Part shown: in pieces, positions 10,553 through 63,100 of the stretch | Layout of the letters: each line of letters starts with the position of its first letter | Numbering within the stretch: the stretch's first letter is position 1 | Source of the DNA: Halichondria panicea | Taxonomy: Eukaryota | DNA length: 64,000 nucleotides | Assembly: GCF_963675165.1 (NCBI RefSeq) | Contig: NC_087392.1 | Coordinates: 78,022 to 142,021, forward strand | Reading direction: 5' to 3' | Program-made: the position numbers and the translations under genes | Notes under the pieces: model-generated | The model's input: only the letters and a program-made list of their open reading frames with translations | The model's database searches: none | Told to the model about the DNA's origin: nothing

Positions 10553-13240
<2,688 letters not shown>

Positions 13241-17720: not shown

Positions 17721-18107
17721 CTCTGCAGCTAGCTAACACACCCACACCTTTGTTTTGCATTACCTCATTCATGTGGAGTCTATGGAAACAGCGCATGCGC
17801 ATTAGGCAAGTATGAAATTCAGGAAGGAGAGGAAAACCAATCCAGTCTAGTCTTATCAGAGTCTTGAATTGGCCAGGGACTGAGATCCAACACAAGCATA
17901 ATTGTTATTCCTATTAATTAATGTGCCGTGTTTGTTACTATAAATAAGTGTGTTTCAATAGCAAAAAGCTTCTTATATACATGTACGCTGTTATAATTAT
18001 AATAAGTACAATGAGCAAACAGTTGATACTGAAAGTATCATCAAAACAGTGAACAAAAATCAACGATGAACAAAAACTGGAGAGTTCAGAGTTCAGAAGT
18101 ATTAAGT

Positions 18108-19493: not shown

Positions 19494-21038
19494 CTATCAT
19501 TGTATGCATCTCCCTAAGCACAAACAACACTTGAAGCATCCCCACAGGAACACAGTCAGCACACACAACATTAGTGCATACACATCCGCATTATGGTATT
19601 TTACCCAGCTCCATCTGTACTTGGCAAACGCTGGTATGAGGTGATCATAACCAACATCTTCATAATGCTCCACTAGGTCAGCAGCAACTCTAGCTCCACC
19701 AGCAAACTTGTAAATCTTTGAGAGTCTTTGTGCATTTGCCACGTACTTGTTGGAAGTGATTCTCCGAATTGCATTCACTAAATCTTCCAGTGTAAAGTTG
19801 TTAGTGCCCCAGACAGTATCCATGAAGGAGTACATTGACACACCGACCTCTCGCTCCTCAATAGCAGAGCCAATCTGGAACTGATCAAAGACGCTAGGCA
19901 AACAAATGACTGGTAGGCTGTTGTATAGGCTCTCTTGAACACTGTTGAGTCCACAATGCACTATACACGCCTTGATTGCTCTGTGCTGCAGGAGAGACTG
20001 TTGAGACACCCAGTTGCGGATTATAACCCGATCACTATCAATGTCCAGTCCATCCAGTGTCCACATGCTGTCCCTTCTCAACGCCCATACAGCATCATAC
20101 TGCGTGCCTAATACAGCATTCACGATCATCTCTGCTCTGCTCCTGGACATGTCTCCTGTGGTACCCATACTGATGTACAATACTGAGCGCTCCTGCTTCC
20201 TGTTTAGCCAGTCTAGTAAACTGTCATTAAGAGGTGATTGCGAGCTCCTCAGCACTGGTCCAACATAATGTCTCAGGGGACTAAGCAGAGTAGGTGCCTC
20301 TATTCCAATCACAGATGTAACGATATGAGGAACAAACACTCCGGGATAGCCAACTAGATTGACATCGCTTAGCACTTTAGAAAACTCTTTGTCTTGTTCT
20401 ATCGCACCTTTGAACAACTTTGCCAACCGTTTCAATAACAATGGTGTTCCAACTGCACTCCACATTCGACCGCCAAACCCCATATCTTCAGGCTGTCCCC
20501 CCATGAAAGTGATAGGGTAGGGCCAACTCGGCCTGATTGCCGGGAACGGGGGAAGAAATGAACTGAAGACAATCACTTTCCAACCCAGTACAGCGTGGTA
20601 GAGACCAATAGGCAGGATAGAGAAATCACACACAATAATATCAAATTGTTCAATTCCTATTGACTGCAACTTTTTCCGTATCTTGATAGCTGCTTTTTCA
20701 TTTGACAGTATTACATCGTTCATCAGTGAAAAGTTACTCAAATGTTGCATTCCTTTCATTGTTTCGATGTACTGACTCCAGGAGAACATATCGTAGCCAG
20801 CACTGATGAATGACACCCCGACACTCTCTGGTAGAGACGGTAGGAGTGATGATCCCTCCAGCACGGTGGAGCACAGGCTCACAGTGTGCCCTCGAGACAC
20901 TAACTCTTCTCCCAGACTGACCAGTGGAAACAGATGACCTGGAAACATCCCATTTAGTAGCAACACAGAGATGGAGTTTGTAGGTGAGCTCCAGGCAATT
21001 AGACAACACACCACCAGCTCTAGTACCAGCAGCTTCAT
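19494..21038 (-). CDS. UDP-glycosyltransferase (UGT superfamily, GT1), intronless, with signal peptide and C-terminal transmembrane anchor
   Basis: The 513-aa ORF has an N-terminal signal peptide (MKLLVLELVVCCLIAWS). The UGT signature region reads WVSQQSLLQHRAIKACIVHCGLNSVQESLYNSLPVICLPSVFDQFQIGSAIEEREVGVSM (consensus W.PQ..lL.H....F.tHgG.nS..Eai..GvP....P...DQ..N). A C-terminal hydrophobic stretch is followed by a basic tail. Confidence 0.85.
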
Positions 21039-23535: not shown

Positions 23536-40389
<16,854 letters not shown>

Positions 40390-40727: not shown

Positions 40728-43519
40728 ATGTCCCTCTCTCCTAAGAGCACAAGCACTCCATTGAAGACAACCTCTTCTCTGGCTACAGAGAACTTATCTG
40801 CGCCCGGTATCCACAAGTCAGCCAGTGGAATAGCATGGTTGGAAACCAGTGAGATCACGTCACACCAGGAGCCCATAGCTCCACTCAAGATACAGGAGTC
40901 TCAAGATCTACTCGATGAGTTTGCAGCCAATGATTCGATAACGTCACAGCTGATCGGAACTCGTGTGTCGTTCTCTTCCCCATCTCAGAGCAGTTTAGTA
41001 GCTGCTGGTCGTGCCATGGCGGTCCTCACCAGTGGAGGGGATTCCCCCGGGATGAACTCTGCACTCCGAGCGGTCGTACGTGTGGGTATCTACTACAACA
41101 TGAAATCGTATGCAGTGTACGAAGGTTACCAAGGTTTAGTGGAGGGTGGCGAGAAGTTGAAGGAGATCACTTGGAACGATGTGTCAGGCATCCATTGCAT
41201 GGGAGGCACCATTATTGGGACGGCACGTTGTAAGGAGTTTCGGACAAAAGAAGGACGATTGAAAGCCTGTGAGAATTTGGTGAAAAGAGGCATCAATAAT
41301 CTGGTTGTGATTGGAGGCGATGGAAGTTTAACTGGAGCCAATATCTTCAAGGAGGAATGGAAAGGTCATATCAAGAAGCTTCTGGAGGACAAGACCATCA
41401 CGGCTAAGCAAGCAGTTGCGTGCGGTTATCTGAACATTGTTGGTTTGGTTGGGTCCATTGATAACGACATGTGTGGTACGGATATGACGATAGGAGCGGA
41501 CACTTGTCTACACCGGATCATGGAGGCTCTGGACTGTCTCACGAGCACAGCCGCTAGTCACCAGAGGAGCTTTGTGCTGGAGGTGATGGGTCGTCACTGT
41601 GGCTACCTGGCTCAGATGGCAGCCATAGCTGGTGGTGAGTGTTGGTGGTCCGTGTTATGTATGTCAGTATGTAACTGTACTATAGGTCACATGTACCTTG
41701 CACTCTCCTATTGACTGATCTATGTACCACCATTAAGTGTATTCATTGTTGCTATTGTTTGCATAAGTATCCTTGTAAGTACACACGGAAACATAATTGT
41801 GGCTTAAACTGGTTTACTTGGCTAATATAATCTGCCCCTCTCCTCCACACAGGTGCTGATTGGGTGCTTATCCCTGAGAATCCCCCACAGCCAGGCTGGG
41901 AGGAAGTCATGTGTCACAAGATCGACTTCTGTCGTCAAAATGGTCGTCGTCACAGTCTAGTGGTCATGTCCGAGGGAGCAGTGGACTCTAAAAACAAACC
42001 AATCACCTCAGCTGACGTCAAGAAGATTCTGGAGACCAAGCTTGGCCACGACACGAGGATCACTGTCCTAGGGCACGTTCAGAGGGGAGGAAAACCCTCT
42101 GCCTACGATAGAATCATCTCTTGCAGGATGGGAGCAGCTGCGGCCCTCGCACTCTTAGGCACCTCCAGTGAGATACCCTCTATGATGATTGGTGTCCAAG
42201 GCAACCAGATCTTCCAGCTGCCCCTCATGGAATGTGTGAGACGCACACGAGCAATTGACAAGGCTATGAAGGATTGTGTCTTCAAGCAAGCTCTAAATAT
42301 TCGCGGAGATAGTTTCCGACGAAGCAGAAAGATCCTCAAGAGATTGGAGTCATGTGGTAGCTCAGATGATTCCAATTGTGAGTCCCCCTCTTCCCCAACC
42401 TCCCACAAGTTCACATTTGCCATCATGAACGTTGGAGCTCCAGCTGCCGGAATGAACGGATGTACGAGGGCCTTTGTTCGTCTTCTCCTCTTTCAAGGAC
42501 ACACTGTCCTGGGGATCTCTGAGGGATTTGTTGGATTGCTAGGGGACAAAGTTCGCCCGATGTGCTGGAAGGAGGTGGACGGATGGGCATCTCAGGGTGG
42601 ATCCAAATTAGGCACTAATCGAGATATTCCCGACGACAAGACTCTTCCAGAAATTGCTGCCAAGTTTGGAGAGTACAAGATCCAAGGGCTGCTTATCATT
42701 GGTGGTTTTGAGGCGTACAGCAGTTTGATCAAGCTGGAGAAAACTCGCTCAGTGTACACAGCATTTCGTATTCCTCTGTGTGGAGTGGCTGCTACCATTA
42801 GTAACAATGTCCCGGGTACAGAGTTCAGTCTCGGCTGCGACACATCCCTCAACGTCATCGTCTCGGCAATGGACGTCCTCCGACAATCGGCGTACGCCAG
42901 TCGCAAAAGAGTGTTTGTGGTTGAGACCATGGGTGGTTACTGTGGTTTCCTTGCCAACATGGTGGCACTGGCTGGCGGAGCTGACGTTGCGTACATCTTT
43001 GAAGAAAAGTTTACGATTGCTACACTGCAGAACGACATATCTTGTCTAATTGGAAAGTTTGTCGATGGCCTTCAAAATGGAATTTTGATTCGAAACGAGA
43101 ATTGCAGTGAGAATTTCACGACCGACTTTCTGTGCAAGCTACTCGACGAGGAGAGCAAAGGAATGTTCATTACCCGCAGCCTTGTCCTCGGGCATCTACA
43201 ACAAGGGGAAGCCCCTAGTCCGTTTGACCGCATTCTGGGCGTTAAGTATGCCTCCCATGCAGTGGATTTCCTCATCGATGAAGCTAACAAGAACTTTGCC
43301 GGGAACAAAGTGCGAGCCACTAGCAAGGAGTCTGCTTGCATGATTGGACTTCAAGGGGTCAAAGTCCAGAGGGTCCCACTCCAAGAGCTTATTTCAAAAA
43401 CTGATTTCAAATATCGAATTCCAACGGACCAGTGGTGGATGTCTCTACGCCATCTGATTGGTCTGCTTGCTAAGCACAAGGAACATGCTTTCCTGGGTGA
43501 AGAATTTCACAGGAATTGA
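40728..43519 (+). CDS. PFK: ATP-dependent 6-phosphofructokinase, eukaryotic tandem-domain type, 2 coding exons (40728-41634, 41853-43519)
   Basis: [131 protein letters not shown]. After the GT-AG intron the protein continues [25 protein letters not shown].. (regulatory half: [45 protein letters not shown]). It is collinear with human PFKM. It carries a roughly 90-aa Ser/Thr-rich N-terminal extension. Confidence 0.9.
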
Positions 43520-44064
43520 ACAAACTTTCTAATAATAATGATTAGTGAACAATGATAAATTAACAATTTAATTTGTAGCTTTAGTTATTCATGCATGCTT
43601 TGTGTGTGTATGCTTTGTGTACGCTTGAAACTTTTCATTGCATGCCTGCCAACATGACTGTAGGACGATAATTACTGCGCATGCGCATGCACTTTGCCAT
43701 ACATGTCTACAGCTACTGCCGGATAATAATTATTGTGCTTTCTGTACATGTACAATTCTACGCAGCTAGTATAAAGTTGTCCAACACTCTGTATAAACCA
43801 TGGTACACTTATTTTGCATGCCTAACAATTATCTACATGTAGATGTAGGTCTACACAACATAATTTTCTTGTAATGCTGTAGCTTTGAAAGCTGCTTTCT
43901 TATGCACTAGCCTATAAGCTTTTAAACTGTAATATGATAAGTTTCATAGAATAATATCTGTCAAAATACATGTAATGGGTAGGTGTTGAATGTGGGGGAA
44001 TGAAAACAGGATCTGCAGTATTGGCTCTCGTTAATCCGGCCACCCTTGGGACAGTGCAGCTTGG

Positions 44065-44215
44065 CCGGAATAGCGAGGTAGTCTAGTGCAGCTTGGCCAG
44101 AATAGCGAGGTAGTCTAGTGCAGCTTGGCCGGAATAGCGAGGTAGTCTAGTGCAGCTTGGCCGGAATAGCGAGGTAGTCTGGCCGGAATAGCGAGGTAGT
44201 CTAGCCGCATTTCTA
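44065..44215. repeat. Roughly 32-bp tandem repeat x4 (ggccggaatagcgaggtagtctagtgcagctt)
   Basis: Direct sequence, intergenic. Confidence 0.9.
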
Positions 44216-44461: not shown

Positions 44462-46433
44462 TCAGATTCGAATACGACGTATCATTCTTTGCACAGTGAG
44501 CACTAATCTTGACACTCGCTGCTTTGATATTAACACACTCCTCTTACGCACTCTCATAGAGCAGTCCACAATGTAGTACAAGCTCAAACCAACTGCTCCA
44601 AATGAAACTAGTTCAGTAGCTGAAAATGAACTCTTGAGATTGAGAGCTCGAAGAGTGGTCGCTGTACGCTCATGCACAAGATCACTGGCGGCAGCAGCTT
44701 GGAGCAAATCTTGATAGCCAGGGATGAGATCCTTGGAGGATGCTGCTGGGTGTGCCAAGAGGTAGGACAAGGCTCCATTAGCTCCACTTTGTGTCATGCC
44801 TGTCCCTCCAAGGCCTGCAGAAACAACTAAACCTGGAGCAAGTTTGTAGAATTGAACTTCATTTTTGGGATTGACAGATCGAGGACAACTATCGACTGAA
44901 AGGACATCAACAAAATGATCTTTGAAGAGTGCCCTGAGATGCTCCAGATTGTTGAGGGCGTAGGTAGCTGCTGCATATTCTGAGCCAAGGTTTCCACCTC
45001 CAGTTAGTTTACCCAGAGTGAGATCTTCTTGAGGAGAGTAGGCCACCTCCGTCCAGTGTGAGTTGTGAGCTCCAATGATTGCAATCTTTCCTTTCATGAG
45101 GAAATATCCAGAGCATCCTGCAGCTGTAGTTATGCTTGGCACAGGCGAAGATAGACCAAATTTCCACTTAACGAGAGAAATGATATTTCTTGGATAAGAC
45201 AAAATCCTGGCTGATGTAGCTTGTCGAGGCTGTTCAAATTCGTACACAGCAGAATAGCCAAGAGAGAGGACCACACTGGAGCATGGCTGATACCACTTCT
45301 TCCCTGTGTTGACACTCTGAAACAAAACTCCCCTGACTCCATTTTCATCGATGTACACACTGTCAACAGCCACCCCCTCACTCCAGGTGTTACCAGTTTT
45401 TTCCACAATGCTGCGGAGGGTGACATTCATGTCAGAACTGATACGACCATCTTCCGGATAAACAAAGGCTGTGAGATCACTGTCAATCTCTCCTGGCTCT
45501 CCCAATGCAGCGGAGATATCCGAAGGAGACATCTCTTTGGACGCAATTTGGTTAGTAATCACAAGATCTCTGTTTTCTTTCTGAACAAGTTGTGCCCCTT
45601 CTTTATCGAACTCGAGGTGGAGTGATTTTGACGGGCCAAGCTCAGTTTCTGTATCAACAAGCAGGGATGGTTTCCCACTAGGAGTGTGGCTAGTAAGACC
45701 GACACTCTCACCAACATCTTCTAGATATCGAAAAATAGGAACAGAGCATCTTGCATAATTCCTACTATGAGCCCAATCTGTGTTTGCAGGACTGATAGAA
45801 TCGATGATCACATTGCGGTAAGTGTGGTAAAAGGCACGGGAAAGAATACTTGCTGTGTTGAGGCAATTTGATGCACTTGAGAATATTCCCTTCAGGGATA
45901 AGTCGACTTTCAAATAGCTCAGCTTCCTTGCTTCAGCCTCAAGCCCCTTGTTAGATAACATCAGGCGATGCAAAAAATGGTAAAGAATGGTTGGAGGCCT
46001 CAACAAACTGTCATTGCTGACAGAGGTGCCTTTGGATACCGTATAAAAGTAGGAGCTAGATCGAGCATTGGAGTACTTGAAATCATAGGTGACAAACATG
46101 ACCTTTTGCTGTGGTCCTGAGAGAGTACTGTTCAAAGCTGCACCCATCATACTACCAGGTCCTCCAGCATACACAGCAAGGGAATTTTCATCAAATAAGC
46201 TATCATATTTTGTACCCTTGATGGAGCGAATTGTCACTCTTGTTTTAGGATGTTCTTCAGTGGAGCGATCAAACACATGATGGTTCTCACAGGCCTCTGG
46301 GAACAGTTGAAGTGCTTTCTGTCTAATTTCATGGTCTGGATTCACCCACTTCTTAGTGAGCTCGCTCTTCTTGTCTCGACAGATCAAGTCTGTGAGATAT
46401 CTGTCCAGAGAATCACCTCTCCCAGAGATCATC
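44462..46433 (-). CDS. Intronless 657-aa ORF, putative FAD-dependent oxidoreductase (DAO-superfamily-like); function uncertain
   Basis: This is a continuous ORF (true ATG at 46433-46431, downstream of the listed alternative start). It has an N-terminal dinucleotide-binding-like motif (LAVYAGGPGSMMGAALNS) and a C-terminal motif typical of FAD-dependent oxidoreductases (LAPGLVVSAGLGGTGMTQSGANGALSYLLA). No family-level match could be verified by eye. Confidence 0.45.
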
Positions 46434-46649
46434 CTAGGCACACACACACAACTATTTGTTACTGTAACAAATCTGTAATTAAACTGAGCAAACTTATGCC
46501 TTGAGCTATAATCTATTAGCTGTGGCTAGGACACCAACCTGGAAATTTCCAAAATAACAATAAACACAGTAGATAAGGAGGTATACACAGATAATGGGGG
46601 GTCTATAAAGTAATACAACAAAAGAATGCAAATTTTTACTTCCTCATGC

Positions 46650-46740
46650 TGCACAACTGCGCGTGCGCTTCACTGTGCTATATGACGTAGCCGCCCTCGA
46701 ATGTTAACTGTGATGAATGACGTAAAAGGCACACCCACTA
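46650..46740. promoter_or_regulatory. Promoter-like cluster upstream of the intronless ORF: NRF1-like palindrome ctgcgcgtgcgc (46658-46669) and two CRE-like TGACGTAG/TGACGTAA sites (46683-46690, 46727-46734)
   Basis: The motifs are read directly from the sequence, 210-300 bp upstream of ATG 46433. Their function is inferred. Confidence 0.3.
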
Positions 46741-47067: not shown

Positions 47068-50000
47068 TCAAGGCTGAGAGGGGTGCTGAGTACTTGAATT
47101 AGAGAGTACGTGGAAATCTGTCCGTGAGGAGTTCAAGTCAGGAGGGGGTCCCGGTTGGCCGAATATGACTGAGGCAGGAGGATAAGGCATCATCTGGTTC
47201 ATCGTGACAGGTACAGAGTTCGAGGAGTGGAGGGTAGACGGTGTGTACACAGGCTCTGTGTATCGTATAGATGGTTGAGAGGACTGCCCCTGAGGCTGTG
47301 CGTACTGCCCCTGAGGCTGTGCCCCCTGCTGGTAGTTAGCCACAATCTCTTCACCTCGTGGCTGTTCATTCGAGTGGACGAAATCGGCTCCTTCAAGAGG
47401 TTGTTGTAATACTCTCTCAAAAATCTCTTGAACAGGCGTCAACGTTTCCGGAGGGTTGGTTAGTGTACTGATCGAATTGGAATTGATAATTTCAGAAATA
47501 AATTCGGCAGGTGATTGAGTTACACTGTCAGAAACTTGAAAGGTGAGCGGTGTGGCATCAGCAGTTTGATCAGTCAGTGGGCGAGACTCGATGATGGGTT
47601 GCATGGGACGAGGTTTATCACTAAAGTCCGTAAGAATGTCATCACTGCTGGCTCGAGACGAGAGAGTTGACGACTGAGATACGAATTTGCTTCCAGCGCT
47701 GCCATTGCTCCCAGTGCTGCTTGCAGTCGAGGGATAGCTATGCAGAGCACGAGTATCAGGTGTGAGATATCCAGAGCTACCAGTGTGACTACCGAGAGGG
47801 TACGGAGGATCGGCCACCTCAACAACAATACAACCATCACCCTCGTTTCCAACTTGCTTCTCAACATCAGTAGCACCATTTCTCACAAAGCTTCCTCCGC
47901 CCCCTCCACCACGCCCACCACCTCCACCGGAGTAGCCACCCCCACCACCGCCACCCCAGGAGCCAGCACTACCTCCACCACCAAATCCACCGTTTCGACC
48001 GCCCTTGCCTCCACTGAGAAAACTATCAGCTGTTGACGCATTCTTCAATGCTCCGGCTCCACCATATCCCCAGGGTGGGCCAGTGAATTTAGCCAAGTCA
48101 GCATCTTCACCAGCCTCTCCGTTGCGACCACCTTTTGCGCTTTCAAGACCGAGACCATCCATTCCATCGACTTCAAGACTAGCATCAGAGCCGTTGTAGT
48201 CGCCATCGTCTCTTCCACGAGTTCCCCCACCTCCCCCGGCAACAATCAGTAGATTCTCCTGTATGTTGGGAAGAATGGAAAATGGAGGTAAAATTATGAC
48301 AACAAAGTGTGAGAACACAACAATAGTTACATGAATGAAAGCAAGATAAGGGATCAGAATACAAACATTTCCTTTAAATACAAATGTTTCAATAACTTGC
48401 CTGAGTGATGTCATTGAGTGCCACAAAGGAACCTCCCCCACCTCCAGAGCTGTACTCGTGTCGTTGAGACATACCCCCACACAGGAAGATGAGAATGTCG
48501 CCTTGCTTCAGAGAAAACGTGGCAGAAATAATAGCTCCCTTCCCTCCAGTTCGATTCTGGCCATCAGTAGCTTTAGCTCCTTGAACAGTGATTCGGTAGT
48601 GGGCACTCAGAGGTATACAGATGCGATGTATGCGTTTCGTATACTCAAACATCACAGGGAAATCGACACATTTTGCCTTGACTGATTCGCTCCACATACC
48701 CCAGCCAGCGTCGTTTTGGGAGCGCACTTTAAACCTGTATGTGTATCCGGGGCAGAGGAAATCGACGTACGTTTTCAATTCTGTTCCAGCCACTTTCTGG
48801 AACTGTGGCTCAGTCTGGGAGAACTTGAGCTGATCATGTGATCTCTTTAAAACAGTGCTGAGATATTTGTCAAGCTGCTCAAATTCGATTTCAAAATGCT
48901 TTGCTTCACAATTTTTGCCCGTTTCCCAAGAGAGAGAGAGGATGTTGTTTTTGTTAGGGGATGGATTAGCGTGTAACTCAGTGGGCGTCTGCCCCCCACA
49001 CACAGCACCCAGGGACGAAAGCTTTTGGACAACTTCTGGTGAGATTACTAACGGGATTTCATGGCTTGTGAGTGGATTGAGGAGACTGCGGTCCTCCGCG
49101 AGTATCAGCGTTTCCATATTGTCAGCGATGGAATGATAAGAGTTGAGGAAATCGTTGTCGTCAGCTGACGTGAGACTGCTGAGTGCATCGTGGGCTTTCT
49201 TGAATGACTCACTCGAGGCTTGGATGAGAACAAGTTGCTGCTCTAGACATCGGGTACGATCAGTATACTGCAAGGGGGAGCGATAAATGAATATCAATCA
49301 TTTATCAAGAGAGTTGATACATAAGGCTTTACAGTGCATACCACATTCCTTATTAGGCACACAGTAATATGCCACATTCATAGAGACAATACTGATATCA
49401 GGAATTCCCACTTCTTGGTAATCAATACAAGTACATCTGTACATACAGGGACAGGCCTTAGTGCAGGATGTGCTAACATCTGAGGACACACTGAAACCAC
49501 TCAATAACAGCTGTTCCCACACGCAAAGTGAACACACACACACACACAGTACCTCCTTATCCACTTGATTCAGTAGCTTTTGCTGTCGGGACTGTATTCG
49601 GCTGATAATCTCTGCAAACTGACTAGAAATGTTAGCTTTAGCAGTAGAAGCTGACGGTCCTAGCTGCTTGAGTATGGCATCAATATTAACTTTTGAGGCA
49701 GCTAAACTTCCGATGATGTTCCCTCCTGTCTGATACAGTCTCTGGACACTAGCACGCACCTTCTTGGCACATTCTGGAATCAGCTCGAAATGTTCAGATC
49801 GAAATATCCAATCAGATTGCACTTCACAAGCGTTGCAAGCAAACTCTTTGCGGCTCTCAGAGTAGTAGACTGCCCTTCTATCTCCGTGGCGATTACAGGG
49901 TACAAAGGTCATGAGTGCAGGGACTTGGTTGGCCTGGTAACGACGGTGGCGTTTAACAGGTCCAAAGTTGCGTTCGTGTTCCAATTTGTCACATTTCTCA

Positions 50001-50497
50001 CAGAACCTGTAGTGGAATCCAGGCTGGCAGTCAATGCATACCATGGTGGTGGGTTGCTCATGGCACACATCACAGAGGGGCTGCTGAGATACAGTGTCCT
50101 GACAATCACCACGTCGCGTTTGGAGGATCTCAAACAGAGCCACGTTGGGAGGTAGTTGAGTGATATCAGGGTGTCCTATCGGGTGTAGCTGAGCACATAC
50201 AGGACACTTGACCCCCCTGGCCATCATCATGTTTTGTAGACATCTGGTGCAGTGAGTGTGTCCACATCTCAATATCCGAGGGACATGGTTAAAGTCTTCT
50301 CCGTACTCCTCGTTGCAGATATCACACTCGAGAGTCTGTAGGACCTGTTGGTTCTACAGAGGCACGCACAGAACAGTATGATGATGTAACAGAGGATACC
50401 TTCACATTATAAATGAGAGTTATTTATAGCTAACGCCTATCTGTACAATACTAGGTAACCCTTCACTCACTGCAGGAGCGTCTTGTTCACCCGACAT
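47068..50497 (-). CDS. TRIM-like E3 ligase (RING, two B-box-like zinc fingers, coiled-coil, FN3) fused to an ALK/LTK-type TNF-like + glycine-rich (polyGly-II) domain, followed by a long S/T/Q/P-rich tail; paralog A
   Basis: Exons in plus coordinates: 50471-50497 (MSGEQDAPA, then a gtgagt donor); about 49554-50355 (NQQVLQTLECDICNEEYGEDFNHVPRILRCGHTHCTRCLQN..CPVC = RING; PLCDVCHEQPTTMVCIDCQPGFHYRFCEKCDKLEHE and ..FACNACE = B-boxes; coiled-coil); 48408-49297 (coiled-coil, FN3 ..YTYRFKVRSQNDAGWGMWSES.., then [61 protein letters not shown]); a GC-AG intron; 47068-48262 ([71 protein letters not shown].. then a low-complexity tail). The glycine-rich part aligns with the human ALK glycine-rich domain ([100 protein letters not shown]). 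Confidence 0.75.
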
Positions 50498-51015: not shown

Positions 51016-54000
51016 TCACTGTCCTTCAGCTACATCTACAATAGTCACTGATCCGTGTCCAGAATTCCCGAGAGTGCGGTTTTGGTTCTCTCCATCTTCT
51101 GCGATGAATGATCCTCCGCCTCCTCCACCACGCCCACCACCACCTCCAGAGTAGCCGCCTCCACCGCCCCCTCCATACACGCCCACGGCACCACCTCCAC
51201 CAAATCCACCGCCTTGTCCAGCCTTCCCTCCGCTAATAAACGATTGAGATTTCAACGAGCTTGAGCTGAAGCCTGCTCCTCCAAAGCCCCAGCATGGAGC
51301 CGAGTAGTTTGCATCCTTTCCAGCCCCTCCCCCAGCCCCGCCCTCAGCCCATTGCTGTCCAAGACTGTCCAATCCCTCGTCACTCATCACGTTAGCATCT
51401 CTGCCGTCATAGTCATCAGAGTCATGTCCTCTTGTTCCACCCCCGCCCCCGGCAACAATGAGGCAGTGAGAGCGCTTCTGGAGTGATACAAACGTTCCTC
51501 CACCACCACCGGTGGAGGACAACACCTTCTCAGACATGCCACCACACAAGATGATCAGCTTGTCATATCTGCATGCACATGTAGGGGGGGGACAGCATTC
51601 ATTGATGATTACATGATGAGAAATCTAAGTTGACTAATAACCTAAATTGACACACAAGTTACGGGCGTCTACAGTTTATTGATTAGCAGGATATAATAAT
51701 ACTCACTTGGTTAGTTGGAAGGTGGCCTCAATGATTCCGCCACGCCCTCCTTTCCTCACATCACCGTCAGCTGCTTTGGCCCCTCGAGCTGTGATGCGAT
51801 AGCGTCCAGTCCACGGTATCTCTAGCTCGACAATCTGCCCAGTGTACTCTATGGTCAGGGGAAACCCCGGCATCGCCCCCACAACAGGTTGACTCCAAAT
51901 ACCCCACCCGGCAATATTGAGTGAGCGAATACGGAAACCATATTTCTTCATAGGCATGATCCCACTGACGAGCGTCTGAGTAACCGTGGCTGGTATGGAA
52001 TCAATCGAACGTGGAAAGTTGTCCATGTATTTCGAGTAATCGCCAGTCACCATGGAAACGGGGTCGCTATCCTCCTCTTCGACGGGCGTGTATCGAATCT
52101 CGTACTTTTCAGCAGCATCCAGATGTGTTTGCTCCCACTTGAGCATAAGCAGGCCACAGTTAATCTCTGTGATCAGTCGAGAGGGCACTCTCCCCCCTCC
52201 AATACAGCCGAGGGTTTCAATAGTAGTGAGCAGGTCAGGGGGTAGGTAGACTGGGATCTCTCCAGTGGTGACAGCTGCTTGGTACAGAGGTAGGTCTTCA
52301 TCCATGAGTTGTGCTCGCATGCGGCTCAGAGTGTTCTCGGCTTGTTGTAGATGATTGTAGTCGGTCATCTGAAGGAGCCAGTTGCCACGGACAATTGCTG
52401 TGTCGGCATTCCCCTGAGCAAGCTCTAGGCTCTCTTGTTGCTCTAGCAGAGATTTCTTTTGAAAGTGGGCCTGTGAAAAATAGGTCAAGTGAAGTTCCAG
52501 TATAATTATTATCATATCCTTGTGTCGAAACTACTAGAATCGGCTCTGTAACTAGAGTTATGATGGTCCAAATTCAACGATTTTATGATTGTCTGAAAGC
52601 TTAGAAGGAGCTCTATCAGATTATATGCTCAAATCCCAAATTTGAAACGGGCCATATTTTCGGGAAAATACCATGGGCCATGGTATTTGTCGAAAACAGG
52701 CCAAAAATAGACTTCTGATTTTTTTAACACATTATCTGAAAGGTCTCTCTCTAAGCTTTCAGAAAATCACAAAATTAACATTATTGGACCAACTGAACTA
52801 AAGTTATGACCGTTCAAAAGTGCTCCATTCAACGCTAGATGTACATAATTATGCTGTATGCACACAATTAAACCACATTCACGCGTCATATACAACAGAA
52901 ATCATACCACCACAAACGAACGCCATGGTAATCATCACACACCTCTTGCTCAATGAGTCCTGTCACTTCAGCCAGCCTCTTCTTTAGAGCCATCTCCAAT
53001 GTGCTGAAGTCTACATTGACACGGTCCAAGGCTCGCATCTGAGGGGGGCAAGTCATGCATAATACAGAACTTGTTATATCCACACAAAATTCTAACTCAA
53101 GTTATAAGCACTCGCTATCAAAACAGGCCCATCAGAAAGATCTTCAAGGCTAATACCGTATATCTTCTAAGTTATCGGACAGCAAAAAATAATTATTTTG
53201 AAAATTGTCCGGGTATAATTGGAACAGATTTTTATAGAGCACGCGAAGTGTCCGAACAAAAAAGCAGCTGCATGCGAGCTAGCTAAGTTTAATAGAACAG
53301 GGTACGACTGAATAGTTGCACTAGCTATCTAAAACTAGCTACTCAAAGCTATCTAACTGCAGCACTCTAAGTCTTACTTGCCGTCTATGAATGTAACTCA
53401 ACTTTTCAAGGTATTGTCCGGATATTTAGAACAAATGTAATATTAAAGTACTGGAGTGTCCGTTGTATTAGAACAACGAAAATTGCCCAAGAGTGTCCGG
53501 GGTAATTAGAAGTGTCCGATAAATTAGAAGATATACGGTAGTACAACACCACCTGATAACACACAACGGTCATGCTTTTCCAATCTCTGATCTACAATGT
53601 CATGTAAATACAGTAGAACCTCGATTATCCGGCCCTCGATTATCCGGAACCTCGATTATCCGGCTTGGCAGTTTTCTTTTTAATCAGATTACATAATTCA
53701 GAAAATGGGCGTGTCCCTCAAATGCGCATGCGCGTTGCAGCTGTTACCATGGAGACATGCCTGCTTTTCTTTTGCGCATGCGCAGACAACATGTGGCACT
53801 GCTGTTCATCAATAAAGTGGGTGGATCAAGGCGTGGTTTATCTATTCGATTATCCGGCATATTCACTTATCCGGCCTGCTTCTGGAACCAAGGTGTCCGG
53901 ATAATCGAGGTTCTACTGTACATCGTTACATACGCCTTTCAAAGGGCTACAAAACACACATTGTAATGGTGGTGAAGTGTGCAGTCTCACCTTCTCCTGA

Positions 54001-54763
54001 TCGACTCTCTTGAGCAAAGAGTCTAGCTCAGTCCGTGTCTTGATGATGGCCTCCACCTTGTCTCGTATGAGCTGCATTAGACTGGGTACGTCATTGCGGA
54101 CTGCCTCCACCGCATCCTCTATAGGAATGTAGTGATCCTCATCAGAACACACACCACTGCGTTTGCACTGCTCACAAGCAAACTTGTTACTCTGAGGAAC
54201 AAACATATAATTAACACACTGGCATTTAGTAACAAGTAATGTTGAAACAATGAACGGACACTGGTAGCTATCACAACCTTAGAGGAGAAGAGGAGGCATG
54301 GTTGGTTAGGATGGTCGGGACACATTGGTACTGGAGTGTTGATACGAACAGCTCCTATGGCCTTTGGTTTGTGATCCTTGACTGGCCCAAACGGTCGACT
54401 GTGCTCCCTCTCACAGCACGAGGCACAGAACATAAACCCAGTGGGTAGACACTGGAAGCAGATGTGAGTAGCAAACTCCTTGCGGCAGTTTTGACAGATG
54501 GATTTCTGCGGAAGAGGTAGAGGATGGCGGACCGTCTTGTCTGGTTCTACTTTAATCGCCGCTACATAGTTCATGATGGTGATGTTGGGTACATGAGGGT
54601 CGTGTGTCACATGACTGCATTGCGGACAAGCCACACCCTCTATGTTGCTGCACTTGTTATCCAGACAGCTCTGACAGAATGTGTGGCCACAGCCGATGAG
54701 GAGTCGAGGTTGCCTCTCACCGCTGGTGGTGTACTCTTCCTTACACATGGGGCACACCAACAT
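51016..54763 (-). CDS. TRIM-like E3 ligase (RING, B-boxes, coiled-coil, FN3) fused to an ALK/LTK-type TNF-like + glycine-rich domain; paralog B, which ends right after the glycine-rich domain
   Basis: Exons in plus coordinates: about 54210-54770 (AAMLVCPMCKEEYTTSGERQPRLLIGCGHTFCQSCL..CPQC = RING; SICQNCRKEFATHICFQCLPTGFMFCASCCEREH = B-box); about 53913-54206 (SNKFACEQCKRSGVCSDEDHY.. coiled-coil); about 52890-53040 (coiled-coil); 51705-52470 (FN3 ..YEIRYTPVEEEDSD..KKYGFRIRSLNIAGWGIWSQP.. then YRITARGAKAADGDVRKGGRGGIIEATFQLTK); 51016-51565 ([129 protein letters not shown]). The 5-prime-most coding exon is not resolved, so the start is given as the Met inside the RING exon. Confidence 0.7.
52536..52850 (-). 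mobile_element. Inverted-orientation copy of the dispersed 300-bp repeat family, inside an intron of TRIM paralog B
   Basis: It is the reverse complement of the gattttctgaaagcttagaa..ggcccgtttcaaatttg..gaatttggaccat modules. Confidence 0.8.
53164..53548. mobile_element. MITE-like element (385 bp) with about 26-bp terminal inverted repeats (ccgtatatcttctaagttatcggaca / tgtccgataaattagaagatatacgg), flanked by a TA duplication (Tc1/mariner-type)
   Basis: The TIRs and flanking TA are read directly. The interior holds at least 5 tandem GTGTCCG(G)-n-ATTAGAA motifs. Confidence 0.65.
53611..53918. mobile_element. MITE-like element (308 bp) with a perfect 22-bp TIR (cagtagaacctcgattatccgg / ccggataatcgaggttctactg), flanked by TA; internal TCGATTATCCGG repeats and two GCGCATGCGC palindromes
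   Basis: TIRs are at 53611-53632 and 53897-53918, with TA at 53609-53610 and 53919-53920. The palindromes are at 53722-53733 and 53773-53784. Confidence 0.7.
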
Positions 54764-55172
54764 GGCAGCTCTATAGGGGTGGAGAGTATGTATGATGATA
54801 TGCCACACACACTGAGTGTACACTCAACACACCTGGTTAGGGATCAGACTCTTCAAGGAACACTCTTGAAGAAGTTGTAAACATTCAGCATTTAGTGGAA
54901 CAACAGTTGAAGCTTTGGAGCTTGGTAAATTATTAAAAGAAGATGACTTTCTTGGAAGAGGATCAAGGGTAAATCCCTTAGTGTGTTTCTAAATGTACGA
55001 ATCAGATCTGGTACGAATGAAATTTTGATGTGGGAATTAAAGGGAAACCCCCATTAGTGCTCTAAATAAACGAAAAATGTTGGCGTTATTTGGAATAATA
55101 AAGTACACAAAAAATTTAAATTTAATAAAGAGTTGGCACCTTGCAGCTCTAGCTAGCTCCATTCCTTCAACG

Positions 55173-56678: not shown

Positions 56679-56689
56679 ATTTATCTCTC

Positions 56690-57710
56690 GAATATCAATT
56701 TTGATCGTTCCATTTGAAAGATCCCTTTCTAAGCTTTCAGAAAACCATAAAAATTTTGACTTTCAATCCACAGAATTCAAGTTATGGCAGCTGAAAGATT
56801 CCCAAAATCATTGATTAAACGGTGGGGAGGGGGTGTCTTTCAACAGCCATAACTTGAGTACAGTTGATCCAATGTCAAAAATGTTAGGATTTCTGAAAGC
56901 TTAGAAAAATTCCTTTCAAATGATGTGTTTCAATCCAAAATTTCGTCGCGGCCCTAATTTGTCATTTTTCGGCTTTGGACCATGGGCTATAATCCATGGT
57001 CGGCTAAATTAGAAAATACTTTTATCTCTCGAATATCAATTTTGATCGTTCCATTTGAAAGATCTCTTTCTAAGCTTTCAGAAAACCATAAAAATTTTGA
57101 CTTTCAATCCACAGAATTCAAGTTATGGCAGCTGAAAGATTCCCAAAATCATTGATTAAACAGAAGGGGAGGGGGTGTCTTTCAACAGCCATAACTTGAG
57201 TACAGTTGATCCAATGTCAAAAATGTTAGGATTTTCTGAAAGCTTAGAAAAATTCCTTTCAAATGATGTGTTTCAATCCAAAATTTCGTCGCGGCCCTAA
57301 TTTGTTATTTTTCGGCTTTGGACCATGGGCTATATATAATCCATGGTCGGCTAAATTAGAAAATACTTTTATCTCTCGAATATCAATTTTGATCGTTCCA
57401 TTTGAAAGATCTCTTTCTAAGCTTTCAGAAAACCATAAAAATTTTGACTTTCAATCCACAGAATTCAAGTTATGGCAGCTGAAAGATTCCCAAAATCATT
57501 GATTAAACGGAGGGGGAGGGGGTGTCTTTCAACAGCCATAACTTGAGTACAGTTGATCCAATGTCAAAAATGTTAGGATTTTCTGAAAGCTTAGAAAAAT
57601 TCCTTTCAAATGATGTGTTTCAATCCAAAATTTCGTCGCGGCCCTAATTTGTCATTTTTCGGCTTTGGACCATGGGCTATAATCCATGGTACGGCTAAAT
57701 TAGAAAATAC
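56690..57710 (+). repeat. Three tandem copies of an about 345-bp unit belonging to the dispersed repeat family, immediately downstream of OSCP1
   Basis: The units start at about 56690, 57036 and 57355 and are nearly identical (ttttatctctcgaatatcaattttgatcgttccatttgaaagatc...). The small ORFs here are repeat artefacts. Confidence 0.9.
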
Positions 57711-58340
57711 TTTTATAGTTCCCTCAGCAATTATGTATTACTCTAAATTCCTATGTACAGATCTTCCGTTACTGTGGTTCAGATTAGTCCTTCAAAGGTA
57801 CGTCGTGTGTTTATATCTCTTACATGTCATGATAGTTTAGTATGTGCTTGCAGAAAGGAAAGGACGAGCTTCATAAAATCATGCAAGATCTAACAGTCCA
57901 GGATACTGCACAAGGTAGAGAGTACAACGTGTACAGTATACACAAATTACTTGCATCATTTTTTCTCCAGGACCATACGATGATGATGATCTATTGGATT
58001 TAATGGACAGTGTTTCTTAGGATGTAGAAACTCTGTATATAGGCAACCCGGTCACTATTTTCTGTAATTGGTAAAGATACATGTATATTGTTGATAGCTG
58101 GTAAGGATCATCACTTACAGTAATTGTATATTGTGTCTGGTAAAGGGTCATTAAGTATAATTAGTCATTATCAGTTGGTAAGATTATCGCATTTTGATCT
58201 GATGCTCTTACCACAAAGTGGTGATGTCATACCGTGTACACCCCAGTACAGTATAGTAATAAACCATCAAATACACGCTGACATTTCAAACACTTGTGAG
58301 GAGAAGGAACGCGTTATCGGCTGTGTTTGGCACTCTGAAA

Positions 58341-59424: not shown

Positions 59425-60167
59425 TCCAATCGACAGAGCCTTTATTTGCACACTGTGTATGCTCCTGCCTACCCAGTCGTGGCTGCACATCTCATAATCT
59501 ATATTCACACAAACTCTTGGGAACTTGTTACAATATAACATGTACTCTTGAATCTTATTGTATTGTTCTATTGTGTCCATTTTATGTATTATGTTATTAT
59601 GTGAAGTATTAACAAAGACTTTTTCTGCGCTGCTGGCATTGTGTACAAGTATTGTGGTTACTATACATGCACTCACTATAAGGGAGTTCCCCTACTGTCA
59701 TTTCCTACTTGAACCCAACGCCACAAACACTAGAAATACAAGTAAATTTTGTTCGTTTACAACTTACAAGCTAAAAGCGCTCATGCATGTAATTGTTGGA
59801 GCTCAGCTTGCCGGCTAACCTGTACCTAGTACCTGTTCCTGTACCACCTCAGATTATTGTCAGCCAAGTAAGTAACAATAAGAATAGATCAATGTAGCAG
59901 CTGTGGGTTGATATTATTGAATAATCTATGGATAGATCATCTAGCCTGTCCATAGGGTGTGTGTGGGTGTGCAGTGCATGCAACAGAGGATTGTAGATGT
60001 AGCTAGAGATGTACTGGTCAGCTCAGTTGATGGTGGTAGTATTATTGTCCATTGTTATAAGTTGGCTAATGCAACTACGTTACTCAAAACATTATTTGTG
60101 TGCATTAACGATGTGCAGGTATCCCTGATTGATGCTATCTTTGCTGTGAGCTGATCGTGTGTCTGCT

Positions 60168-63100
60168 ATGTCCTCCAAAGAGTTTATTGCTTGTGTGGTG
60201 GGGCTCAGTTTTGAGCCAGGAGAGCCATTCAATTGGAAACCAGGCGTTGGAAAGTCTTGTCTGTGTCATCGCTTCACTCATCCTGGCCTGGACGATTACA
60301 TCGACAGCCATCCATCAGTACTAGCATTGCACGAGTTTGAGAGCCATGTCATCAACAGTGATCATTTCTTGTATTGGGGGTCGCCCGAAGTAAATTTCCG
60401 TACAACAGATTCTCATAAGTCTGTTACTCTGAAGGTACACATTGTGGAGCAAACTGTGTTCTATCAAGACGTTACTTGTCAGCCATTCAATGCATCCACT
60501 AGGCCAGACCGACCCGAGTTCTACAATAGACGCATCTCTGGTCCAATAGAATCTCCAGGGAAACTATCCTATCAATCGAGGGATGATATTGTATCGCCTG
60601 CAGACTACAACGCTGCCGTGTACCCCTCAGGCATTTCTAAACTGACTTGTGGATTTGTTGTGGTTGTGGATGTGTCTCAGAAAGGTATTGCATTTGAGCA
60701 GCAGTTGAACAGAGCTGAGAAGGTTCTTGACCATCTTACAAAGCACAAACGAAAGCTGGTCATAGCTGCAACGAAGCGTGATAAAGCGTTCGTTCCTTCT
60801 CTTGATAAAGTCTACGATATGAAGAAGAAGTACAAAACCACTGTAGTAGAAGTGTCTGCTGAACATAACCACAACGTCAAAGAGTGCTTCAGAGTTCTTG
60901 CCTACAAGGTGCTCAAGAGCTCTAAACTCTCCTCTCAAGTTCAAACGTATCCAGAGGCTGCTCACATTAGTTTGTTCTCAAAGGGTTCAGCCAAAAGATC
61001 GTTTATCTCGTTTATCAAGAAGCGAATCAACGACCCTGACGAGCGTATTGGTGCCATCGAGAGGAACGAAGAGTACAAGGACTGTGTGCTGGTGATTGGC
61101 AAGTACGAGACAGACAAACTGTTCGCAAAGCATGTGCTGGAGGTATTTAACGGGAAGGTGGATCTGTATGCAGGAGCCAAGGACAACCCTGAGATGAGGG
61201 AGGAGTTTCTGGAGGACTTTGTTGCACAGAGGGAAGACCTGGCTCTCTACACTACAGAGCTGAAAGAGTGAGTGTTTGTGTGTGTTGAACAGTTCGTGAA
61301 TAGCTTTTGATTATAAATTATATACAGTCAATTGCCCTTGACAGGTGCATATTGTGCGATTGGCTTCTATTTTAGGTATGCATATGTTAGACAGCCTTAA
61401 ACGAAATTCCCAACATTCATAGTACAGTGGCTCTGCCAGTTCCTACAGCCTCTTCCATTTGATTCCTGTAGTCCTATCCATGGCCAGGAGTGCATGTCCT
61501 ACCCATGGCCGGGAGTGCATGTCCTACCCATGGCCAGGAGTGCATGTCCTACCCATGGCCAGGAGTGCATGTCCTACCCATGGCCAGGAGTGCATGTCCT
61601 ACCGTATAGTGTGCTTGAGAGTATATGCATTAATGTGTGTGTGTGTAAGTTAAAGCTTGTTTATCATGTGTTGACAGTACAGTGCATTGTGTAATTAAGC
61701 TTTGCATCATCTGATTCTCACCGTGTTTGTTGTGCTTTCTCTGGAGATTTATCCATAACTCCTGGTAAAATAAAATAGTTATTGTCAATATTAATATTGG
61801 GACTTTTCTGCTGCCTGGCAGACTGACTAGGACCGTTCATTGTCTTGGTAGGACACTAGGCACATCCTGTGTTAGTGCACACACCTGAGAGTCCCCCCCC
61901 CACTAGCTGCTAGCTTCATGTACACGTATCTGGTGTTGGTTTTACTAATGGCTTAGATATTAAAGAAAAATGCCGGTGTATGTTTTGTGATGCACACTGG
62001 CTGTTACTGTTGCTACATGTAGTTAGGCAGCTACAAGGAGCTATTAGTGGCTAGGCATATGTAACCACGGTGATACAGATATAATTTTGGAACCATTGTT
62101 GTAAGAGTCCCCGCATTTGACCTTTAGATTGTGTTTCAGTTGTTTTCATTGTTGAAGATTATATGAACAAAGATGTTTGTTTAGCCTGGCAGGGCACCTG
62201 CCTCCCCGTGCTGTATTAGGCTTATCTGTTATATATATCGGACAATGCTGTTAGAGTGTGTTTCTCTGAAGAGGCATGTGTTATTGATAACATACTGTGT
62301 TGTTGCTTTCAGTAAGAGCCGAGATAGTAGCTAGTTGCACACAGTGCACAGAGTGACAATGTTGTGAGTTCTAGTGATGACCTTTCTGTTGTGCTCGGCT
62401 GTGTGTCTGTGTGTCTGTGTGTCTGTGTGTGCTAATAAAGCAATTGTGGTAGTAGCCATGGTAAGTGCAGCCAACCACATATCCTAAGAAGGAATAAACT
62501 TTCTGTGCCACTTTCCTATAGCTAAGAGGCTTTTAGCCCAATTGTGTGGGAGTCAACCAATCAACTTGGCTTCTAACGTGCACCCTAAGTTGCACTTTGT
62601 GAGAAGCCAGTCTGTCAAAACATGTGCTCATTTCTAGAACTCTAATTTATTCAAAGCAAAGTGTCTTGACCTGTTTAATTCTGCCACCCACCGAGTAAAG
62701 AGCTTCTTTGATATGGGTGTGTATTAATGGGCCGGTCTGGTAGCAGTTGGCTTCTGTGTACAGTCAGTATCTCTCTGATACCACTGTTACACAACACGTG
62801 TATAAGCTCTTGAATGACTGTTTCTGGGAAGTCAATTATTGTTTACCATCAGCTGGGCCATGGGCTAATGAGTGTGATATCATCATCACCACCTCATATT
62901 AGTGGTTAGTGTGCTGATATTAGTGGTTAGGGTGGTTAGAGTCCATCTGCCCATAGATAGGATCTGCCCATAGATAAGATCTGCCCATCCATCATCCTCA
63001 CTTCCTTAATTACAGATGGATAGACGCACACATAAAGGAACTAGACTCGGATGACGAAGAAGAAAACAACACTTACGATGATCTCCCCAGTCCTCATACC

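Follow-up and report, generated by a model that had tools for sequence, protein, structure and literature searches.

A divergent DAO-superfamily flavoenzyme-like gene in the sponge Halichondria panicea and its possible bacterial origin

The longest uninterrupted open reading frame (ORF) in the analysed window, a 64-kb stretch of the Halichondria panicea genome (NC_087392.1, positions 78,022 to 142,021), is as a whole best explained as a functional nuclear gene for a very divergent enzyme of the DAO superfamily which was acquired long ago from bacteria, and we regard this account as fairly probable. An ancient transfer from a bacterium to a sponge is the best reading of its origin, albeit not a proven one, as the family is mostly bacterial and otherwise holds one isolated clade of sponge proteins and one isolated, unrelated-looking cnidarian member. 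The bacterial gene would have entered the sponge lineage before the split of the demosponge lineages that carry copies of 37-60% identity. Following the transfer it would have kept its single coding exon, adopted the codon usage of the host, acquired a host-type promoter with an NRF1-like palindrome and probably gained an intron in the 5'UTR.

The coding sequence, its surroundings and its upstream region

The ORF lies on the minus strand and extends over 44462..46447 when read from a GTG (661 aa); the version starting at the first ATG has 656 aa plus a stop codon at 44462-44464 (Table 1). Its translation is 100% identical to the NCBI entry 'uncharacterized protein LOC135349542 [Halichondria panicea]'. 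An ORF of 1971 nt at 45% GC is far above chance expectation and, as it also has 34 homologues with E < 1e-130, it is not a chance frame but a real gene. Eight independent H. panicea contigs encode exactly this protein, and their DNA differs by two synonymous changes alone. The initial annotation had described an intronless ORF of 657 aa; the coding sequence (CDS) is indeed uninterrupted, but the count of 657 includes the stop codon, and the term intronless can be applied to the CDS only, since an intron in the 5'UTR is likely.

Table 1. Positions of the flavoenzyme gene, its predicted elements and neighbouring genes in the window
Feature	Position	Strand	Basis or remark
CDS of DAO-fold flavoenzyme-like protein, 656 codons + TGA, single coding exon	44462..46432	minus	NCBI LOC135349542
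Residues 605-631, predicted helix with most hydrophobic 19-residue window LVSFGAVGLSLYYIVDCSM	44540..44620	minus	Kyte-Doolittle 1.48, model
Residues 540-554, GLGGTGMTQSGANGA, putative flavin-binding motif at the C-terminus (DAO superfamily)	44771..44815	minus	alignment, profile columns
Cys516-Pro517-Arg518	44879..44887	minus	alignment; Pfam DAO columns 310-312, one-residue register uncertain
Helical insertion, residues about 140-245 (predicted)	45698..46015	minus	no counterpart in ~370-residue glycine/sarcosine oxidases
Residues 86-104, predicted beta1-alphaA dinucleotide-binding element, motif YAGGPGSMMGAAL	46121..46177	minus	alignment and model (E86-90/H92-104)
Putative 206-nt 5'UTR intron, donor GAA/GTAAAA, acceptor tgtgtgtgtgtgcctAG/G one base before ATG	46434..46639	minus	inferred from sequence
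NRF1-like palindrome GCGCGTGCGC, 236 bp upstream of ATG	46659..46668	.	sequence; probable core-promoter element
Two CRE-half-like sites, TGACGTAG (46683-46690) and TGACGTAA (46718-46725)	46683..46725	.	sequence
RING-fn3-GRD gene	47068-50272		three ORFs of 324, 302 and 470 aa
Second RING-fn3 gene	51016-54823		
Ras-like ORF	60159-61271		
UDP-glycosyltransferase, complete-looking	19497-21038		513 aa in one ORF
Phosphofructokinase (PFK)	40728-43519		two ORFs of 328 and 551 aa, one ~150-bp gap

The gene had been singled out as uninterrupted within an otherwise intron-rich region, a premise that proved overstated, as the UDP-glycosyltransferase occupies one ORF, PFK two and the RING-fn3-GRD gene three long ORFs. 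The exons of the window are long and its introns few, and a 2-kb exon is the extreme of this local habit and no exception to it. Several of the remaining 'long ORFs' proved to be minisatellites.

Between the ATG and the stop codon of the GRD gene upstream (47068) lies an intergenic space of 635 bp. The palindrome and the two TGACGTA(G/A) sites reported from it are present as described, while their interpretation as host promoter motifs belonging to this gene holds in part only. For GCGCRYGCGC, 6 sites were counted in the window where 0.00 were expected, so that the GCGC(A/G)(C/T)GCGC palindrome belongs to the common elements of the H. panicea genome and is not special to the flavoenzyme gene. 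As two of the six palindromes fall between convergent genes, their role is not simply that of a promoter, and no tRNA or Rfam RNA in the window accounts for those in convergent intergenic regions. A near-copy, GCGCATGCGT, is located 45 bp upstream of the ATG on contigs L003 and L059-L061 (another sponge lineage). TGACGTA is not enriched window-wide (5 found versus 4.66 expected), with three of the five sites within 300 bp upstream of the flavoenzyme gene, and it is absent upstream of the orthologues on L001-L003.

The acceptor-like site directly before the ATG, repeated in orthologues as a pyrimidine/GT tract followed by AG (contigs L001, L002, L003 and L062), and the donor-like site at 46639 lead us to expect a 5'UTR intron. 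It would resemble the nearby PFK intron, and local introns look alike. The transcript would likely begin with a short non-coding first exon near 46640-46660, followed by the single coding exon. Matching Logan contigs were considered as transcripts and rejected, being genomic or adapter-led.

Predicted fold, conserved motifs and additions to the core

The earlier description of the protein as FAD-oxidoreductase-like is borne out by the Pfam DAO profile (PF01266), whose gathering threshold was narrowly passed (29.5 versus 27.9 bits) over residues 294-553 only and profile columns 112-347, and by the predicted fold. PF01266 is also precomputed for most homologues of LOC135349542. Sequence searches of the PDB with the single protein and with a profile of the 28-sequence family returned no useful match. 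A reasonably confident AlphaFold2 model (mean pLDDT 76, pTM 0.81), computed from the family alignment, contains the FAD-binding domain and the substrate-binding beta-meander of a two-domain fold, and Foldseek matched it best to N-methyltryptophan oxidase and monomeric sarcosine oxidase (E 2e-13 to 1e-11, probability 1.0), which together with PIPOX represent one enzyme group (PDB 2gb0, 2uzz, 7exs). On the strength of the model and these matches, the core is predicted to be the two-domain amine-oxidising flavoenzyme fold of the glycine/sarcosine oxidase type. Identity to glycine oxidases (ThiO, PDB 4ysh and 1ng3; CmiS2, 6j38) is 10-15%, and relative to them the sponge protein is longer by ~290 residues, comprising an 85-residue N-terminal extension, an insertion of ~100 residues and a C-terminal helix with its tail. 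The NCBIfam model TIGR02352 (ThiO, cut-off 250.8 bits) gave no match for the sponge protein and 21.3 and 17.8 bits for two homologues; judged by these sequence scores, the protein is not a ThiO equivalog.

The family alignment of 28 sequences has 119 invariant columns, among them the blocks YAGGPGSM..AAL, SNARSS, SLGY, LTGGGN.GSE, SCPR..N..N and GLGGTGMT.SGANGA. Both glycine-rich motifs recognised in the initial annotation, GGPGSMMGAA (G90-G91-P-G93...A98) and G540-LGGTG545, are present and invariant in the 28 homologues. In the wider family, which includes the bacterial and Clytia members, the residues G90, G91, G392, G439, C516 and R518 are the only invariant ones besides the start Met. The first glycine motif is non-canonical throughout the family, reading GxGxxxG (GGPGSM(M/V)G) where glycine oxidases have GxGxxG, and the position that closes beta2, where an acidic residue usually binds the FAD ribose, varies across the family between D, S and N (Y-D/S/N-F); binding of FAD is therefore not assured. 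GLGGTG540-545 shares profile columns with GFSGHG of monomeric sarcosine oxidase (MSOX) and appears to be the counterpart of the GFSGHGFKF of sarcosine oxidase.

Around the core, the model places three additions: at the N-terminus a helical extension of 85 residues, internally a helical insertion of ~100 residues, and a C-terminal hydrophobic helix. This helix is followed by a basic tail of 30 residues that ends in RRIRI. In 25 of the 28 homologues, hydrophobicity likewise peaks at the position of the helix, and the tail end reads (C/R)RIRL in most. We consider the helix a probable membrane anchor from its sequence, although its Kyte-Doolittle value of 1.48 in H. panicea is borderline for a transmembrane helix. 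A peroxisomal PTS1 reading, suggested by -CRL in three homologues, was not adopted, as most members end in -IRL or -IRI after the hydrophobic helix.

The residues C516 and R518 are invariant even among the bacterial and Clytia homologues. Mapping of short fragments from three family members, in weak alignments of 12-15 bits, placed the Cys at DAO column 310 and the Arg at column 312; Cys315 of MSOX (sequence verified against PDB) falls at column 309 and Arg283 of human DAAO at column 311. Cys315 is the attachment site of 8-alpha-S-cysteinyl-FAD in MSOX, and Arg283 of DAAO binds the substrate carboxylate. Cys516 and Arg518 are each displaced from these functional residues by the same single profile column, a shared offset for which a register slip of one residue in the 12-15-bit alignments would account. 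The invariant Cys is located 24 residues before GxGGxG in the sponge protein and 26 residues before it in MSOX (Cys315), and the DAAO strand G-F-R283-P corresponds within one column to S-C-P-R518 of the sponge protein, both within Pfam DAO. Comparison of the family profile with MSOX by hhalign gave a spurious match of 12 residues only. The apparent match of Cys516 and Arg518 to MSOX Cys315 and DAAO Arg283 is thus a lead and not a result, and covalent flavinylation at Cys516 is put forward only as a hypothesis drawn from these alignments.

Homologues, synteny and origin of the gene

A word-indexed search retrieved 34 further proteins of 680-758 residues with 45-60% identity and E < 1e-130, and two more such searches, based on broader alignments, recovered nearly the same sponge proteins, adding only P0036 and P0140-P0142. 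Three of the 34 homologues were located; the contigs that carry them measure 42 kb to 1.7 Mb and otherwise have animal-like genes. The neighbours encode RING fingers, fn3, the ALK/LTK glycine-rich domain, Oscp1 and Ras, and the same set of neighbours is found in the H. panicea window, with the flavoenzyme gene in a different orientation to them in Halichondria. In another lineage (L059, L060), the fn3 gene and Oscp1 again adjoin the flavoenzyme gene. A second sponge-type group has proteins of 573-590 residues with 37-42% identity and without the hydrophobic tail; its contigs are eukaryote-like, with Sec3, SH3BP5, MFS and ABC as adjacent genes, and it probably comes from Haliclona, as one of its members belongs to the sample series of Dharamshi et al. 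All 38 sponge-type homologues consist of one ORF each, so that clear orthologues with introns, the observation that would have spoken against the earlier interpretation, were not found among them. The host flanks of the H. panicea gene (the fn3/GRD gene and PFK) are the same in 6 independent assemblies, which places it as an integrated gene among host genes.

An exhaustive HMM search of 1.84 billion representative proteins yielded 97 relatives at E <= 1e-3 and 23 at E <= 1e-30, and all the non-animal relatives with readable context were on bacterial contigs or genomes. Twenty GTDB genomes carry relatives, including those of Labrys, Aestuariivirga, Rhizomicrobium, Mesorhizobium, Thiobacillus and Methylococcaceae, and further carriers are one alphaproteobacterial MAG and one Rickettsiales MAG. 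The Labrys homologue aligns end to end over residues 29-552 with 23% identity, the N-terminal extension and the helical insertion included. The best non-sponge match, P0038, has 31-33% identity and is encoded on a contig of 60% GC with YidD and DUF1993; another relative is found on a bacterial metagenome contig with ShlB, LysR and IS1595, and a third (P0064) adjoins RND efflux genes. Mitochondrial presequences were considered at the N-termini of several distant homologues and dropped once these relatives proved bacterial.

The initial annotation saw no obvious metazoan orthologue, and the only named animal relatives among the 97 are Halichondria itself and one remote protein of Clytia hemisphaerica, annotated as 'putative cnidarian restricted protein'. 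The Clytia gene spans 2416 bp for 695 residues and thus has introns. No Amphimedon protein occurred among the homologues from the word-indexed search or the 97 HMM relatives. The phylogeny that had been proposed as a check on bacterial or fungal origin, here by neighbour-joining with no outgroup, united the two sponge-type groups in 98% of bootstraps and placed the bacterial P0038 as their sister in just 27%. The suggestion of a horizontally acquired gene thus stands as far as a bacterial origin is plausible, the non-animal relatives being bacterial, but not as a recent or lineage-specific event, as many sponge-type contigs share the gene at 37-60% identity and its neighbours are conserved in the closer group.

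Vertical inheritance of an old gene of eukaryotes or early animals, which demosponges would have retained, Clytia would have in very divergent form and nearly all other lineages would have lost, is unlikely in our estimation and yet has to be weighed seriously. The bacterial homologues would then be distant cousins, or recipients of the gene from eukaryotic hosts. The intron-containing cnidarian homologue and the weak support of 27% for a specific bacterial sister are consistent with it, as are carriers of intracellular type (the Rickettsiales MAG), which are known to acquire host genes, and the related contig L036, which is gene-poor and has a full-length eukaryote-style ABC transporter; sampling of protists and other animals may also be incomplete. 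Most of the placed carriers, however, are free-living Proteobacteria (Labrys, Mesorhizobium, Thiobacillus, Methylococcaceae), the 97 relatives include no other annotated animal, fungal or protist protein, and sponge and Clytia proteins share ~17-20% identity and were grouped in 0 of 200 neighbour-joining bootstraps.

The Halichondria copy has peculiarities of its own. At 21 columns on which the other 27 sequences all agree, its protein alone differs, while no other member exceeds 9 such private changes. K548Q, at a Lys that is near-invariant elsewhere, and loss of the YYFH.RHS motif are among the 21; the tail after the hydrophobic helix has 30 residues against 52-104 elsewhere. Among 12 ORFs tested, the gene has the lowest GC3 (0.415, tied with one neighbour) and the lowest correlation of codon preference (0.77 versus 0.80-0.88), values that are still close to those of neighbouring genes, which was the comparison suggested at the outset. 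Drift of this gene towards loss or towards a changed, possibly non-catalytic role, in a family functional as a whole, could be read from these features, but we hold it improbable, as the frame of 656 codons is intact, the GGPG, SLGY, GGGN, CPR and GLGGTG motifs are all kept, the protein is the same on all 8 contigs with synonymous differences only, and the lone long branch of Halichondria in the alignment inflates the count of private changes. We read the peculiarities as lineage-specific divergence and not as decay, though the activity of the Halichondria protein may have changed or been lost.

The uninterrupted CDS and the promoter-like motif cluster in the short intergenic space would also suit a retrogene, which would have arisen as a processed copy of a parent gene with introns and then come under a host promoter, as had been proposed for this ORF. 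This is very improbable, as no intron-bearing parent gene was present among all the homologues retrieved and no intron-bearing paralogue on any sponge-type contig, while with 38 single-ORF homologues any retroposition would have to be older than their split, with the parent since lost. Moreover, the stop codon is directly followed by non-A sequence, with no abutting poly(A) remnant, and the nearest non-sponge relatives are bacterial. A recent horizontal transfer or contamination of the assembly by a symbiont, which a single ORF with bacterial relatives in an animal rich in bacteria might suggest, is refuted for practical purposes by the same junctions in six assemblies, by neighbour-like GC (45%) and codon usage and by syntenic orthologues on other sponge-type contigs, the gene being flanked by animal genes with introns on a 5.8-Mb scaffold and its best bacterial relative being only 31-33% identical.

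Possible function and significance

The nearest folds all oxidise a C-N bond, in glycine, N-methyl amino acids, proline, arginine or opines. The sponge protein most likely binds FAD and would oxidise an amino-acid-like amine that bears a carboxylate, at its C-N bond, with the invariant Cys516-Pro-Arg518 strand probably positioned beside the flavin. Its catalytic body is probably cytosolic and would be held at the membrane by the hydrophobic helix near the C-terminus. As a working model, in which everything beyond the predicted fold is inferred, we therefore propose a membrane-tethered oxidase or dehydrogenase that uses flavin and acts on amines or amino acids.

Along with an old acquisition from bacteria, a fuller account may be offered tentatively, its parts being taken jointly. 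An early demosponge would have acquired from bacteria an undescribed family of flavoenzymes, distinguished by the N-terminal extension, the helical insertion, the invariant Cys-Pro-Arg active-site strand and possibly covalent FAD, and its descendants would have retained it over hundreds of millions of years. The sponges would have refitted it with a membrane anchor and the conserved (C/R)RIRL tail, as well as with a promoter of host type and an intron in the 5'UTR, and the gene would have stayed linked to a pair of genes with RING, fn3 and ALK/LTK glycine-rich domains. It might serve a sponge-specific oxidation of amines or amino acids, for example in the processing of metabolites or in peroxide-based defence.

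If true, this would constitute a dated and well-integrated transfer of an enzyme gene from bacteria to an early-branching animal, retained across demosponges, and would reveal a small unstudied branch of amine-oxidising flavoenzymes in bacteria and sponges. It would introduce no new principle, as sponge enzymes derived from horizontal transfer and divergent enzymes of the DAO family are both already known. Among the prokaryote-derived genes of Amphimedon queenslandica, 'oxidoreductase' is one of the commonest Pfam classes (Conaco et al. 2016, PMC4784904); those genes are alike in being enzyme genes of patchy distribution with GC and codon usage assimilated to the host. That paper has no FAD or amino-acid-oxidase term and does not mention this flavoenzyme family.

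The gene neighbourhoods of the bacterial relatives are mixed and comprise esterases, ATP-grasp and Mur-ligase/cyanophycin-synthetase-like genes and type I secretion. Repeated adjacency to the ATP-grasp and cyanophycin-synthetase-like ligase genes gives a weak hint, by analogy, of a substrate derived from amino acids or peptides, and it could be used as an entry point to the substrate. The bacterial gene adjoins a protein of ~320 residues with a weak ATP-grasp match at 5 loci and a cyanophycin-synthetase-like Mur ligase of ~900 residues at 4-5 loci.

Neighbouring genes and 5' end of the flavoenzyme gene

Several sponge-type contigs carrying orthologues of the flavoenzyme gene (L001-L003, L059-L060) have genes of the RING-fn3 type beside it, so the linkage between the two is conserved. 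In the window, two such genes lie adjacent to each other (table), and at least the one at 47068-50272 adds an ALK/LTK-type glycine-rich domain (GGGGGGYSGGGGGRGGGGGGSF...) to RING and fn3, which is an unusual setting for the glycine-rich domain. The NCBI model of the flavoenzyme gene starts at the downstream ATG. Splicing of the putative 5'UTR intron at the proposed sites would bring an upstream ATG (46645-46647, minus strand; gcagcATGaggaa|gATG across the junction) into frame, and the predicted N-terminus would then gain Met-Arg-Lys. The 3' flank of the gene holds an array of four 32-bp units (44053-44180).

Features located in the analysis (window coordinates, except for the Clytia gene)
Feature	Position	Strand	Details
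GCGC(A/G)(C/T)GCGC sites	2205, 17791, 43677, 46659, 53724, 53774		NRF1-site-like
Minisatellites	5368-6172, 7026-7993, 11571-11969, 24896-26079, 30766-32354, 35781-36256, 36746-37489, 56680-57716		
UDP-glucuronosyl/glucosyltransferase	19497-21038	minus	513 residues; Pfam UDPGT, E 9e-25
Phosphofructokinase	40728-43519	plus	two long ORFs, 328 + 551 aa
RING finger + fn3 genes, adjacent	47068-50272, 51016-54823	minus	
Remote flavoenzyme-family homologue, Clytia hemisphaerica (L063)	CACVBU010001136.1, 5001-7416		UniProt 'putative cnidarian restricted protein'

Homologues in bacteria and Clytia

Among the bacterial loci, a protein of ~320 aa with a weak ATP-grasp match is encoded upstream of the homologous gene in L013, L014, L016, L017 and L026, and a cyanophycin-synthetase-like Mur-ligase protein of ~900 aa adjoins it in L018, L020, L024 and L025. 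In Labrys, two esterase genes are followed by the flavoenzyme homologue instead. These bacterial neighbours may hint at what substrate the flavoenzyme family as a whole acts on. The remote Clytia homologue has introns and by grouping falls outside the sponge clade, and therefore may represent a second, independent eukaryotic occurrence of this rare family. The Logan contig L062 (SRR32906201_15760) carries the Nextera/Tn5 mosaic-end adapter AGATGTGTATAAGAGACAG at bases 1-19, so its start is untrimmed adapter left in a public assembly.

Palindromes, intron-poor genes and minisatellites of the window

The 10-bp palindrome GCGC(A/G)(C/T)GCGC occurs six times in the window against 0.00 expected from shuffles. 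A repeat family as the source of these copies was ruled out because the flanks of the sites are unrelated. Two of the sites, at 17791 and 43677, are in intergenic stretches bounded by convergent genes, a position in which one would not expect a promoter. Neither a tRNA nor an Rfam RNA was found near them.

The UDPGT gene reads as one ORF from its ATG, which gives the window a second coding sequence that appears to lack introns. The phosphofructokinase gene has a single intron of about 167 nt between its two ORFs, whereas vertebrate PFK genes have far more. The window is rich in minisatellites with periods of 20-47 bp and up to 68 copies, besides one 347-bp unit present in three copies; several mechanically listed 'ORFs' of 150-430 aa on both strands were rejected as genes, being minisatellite repeats.
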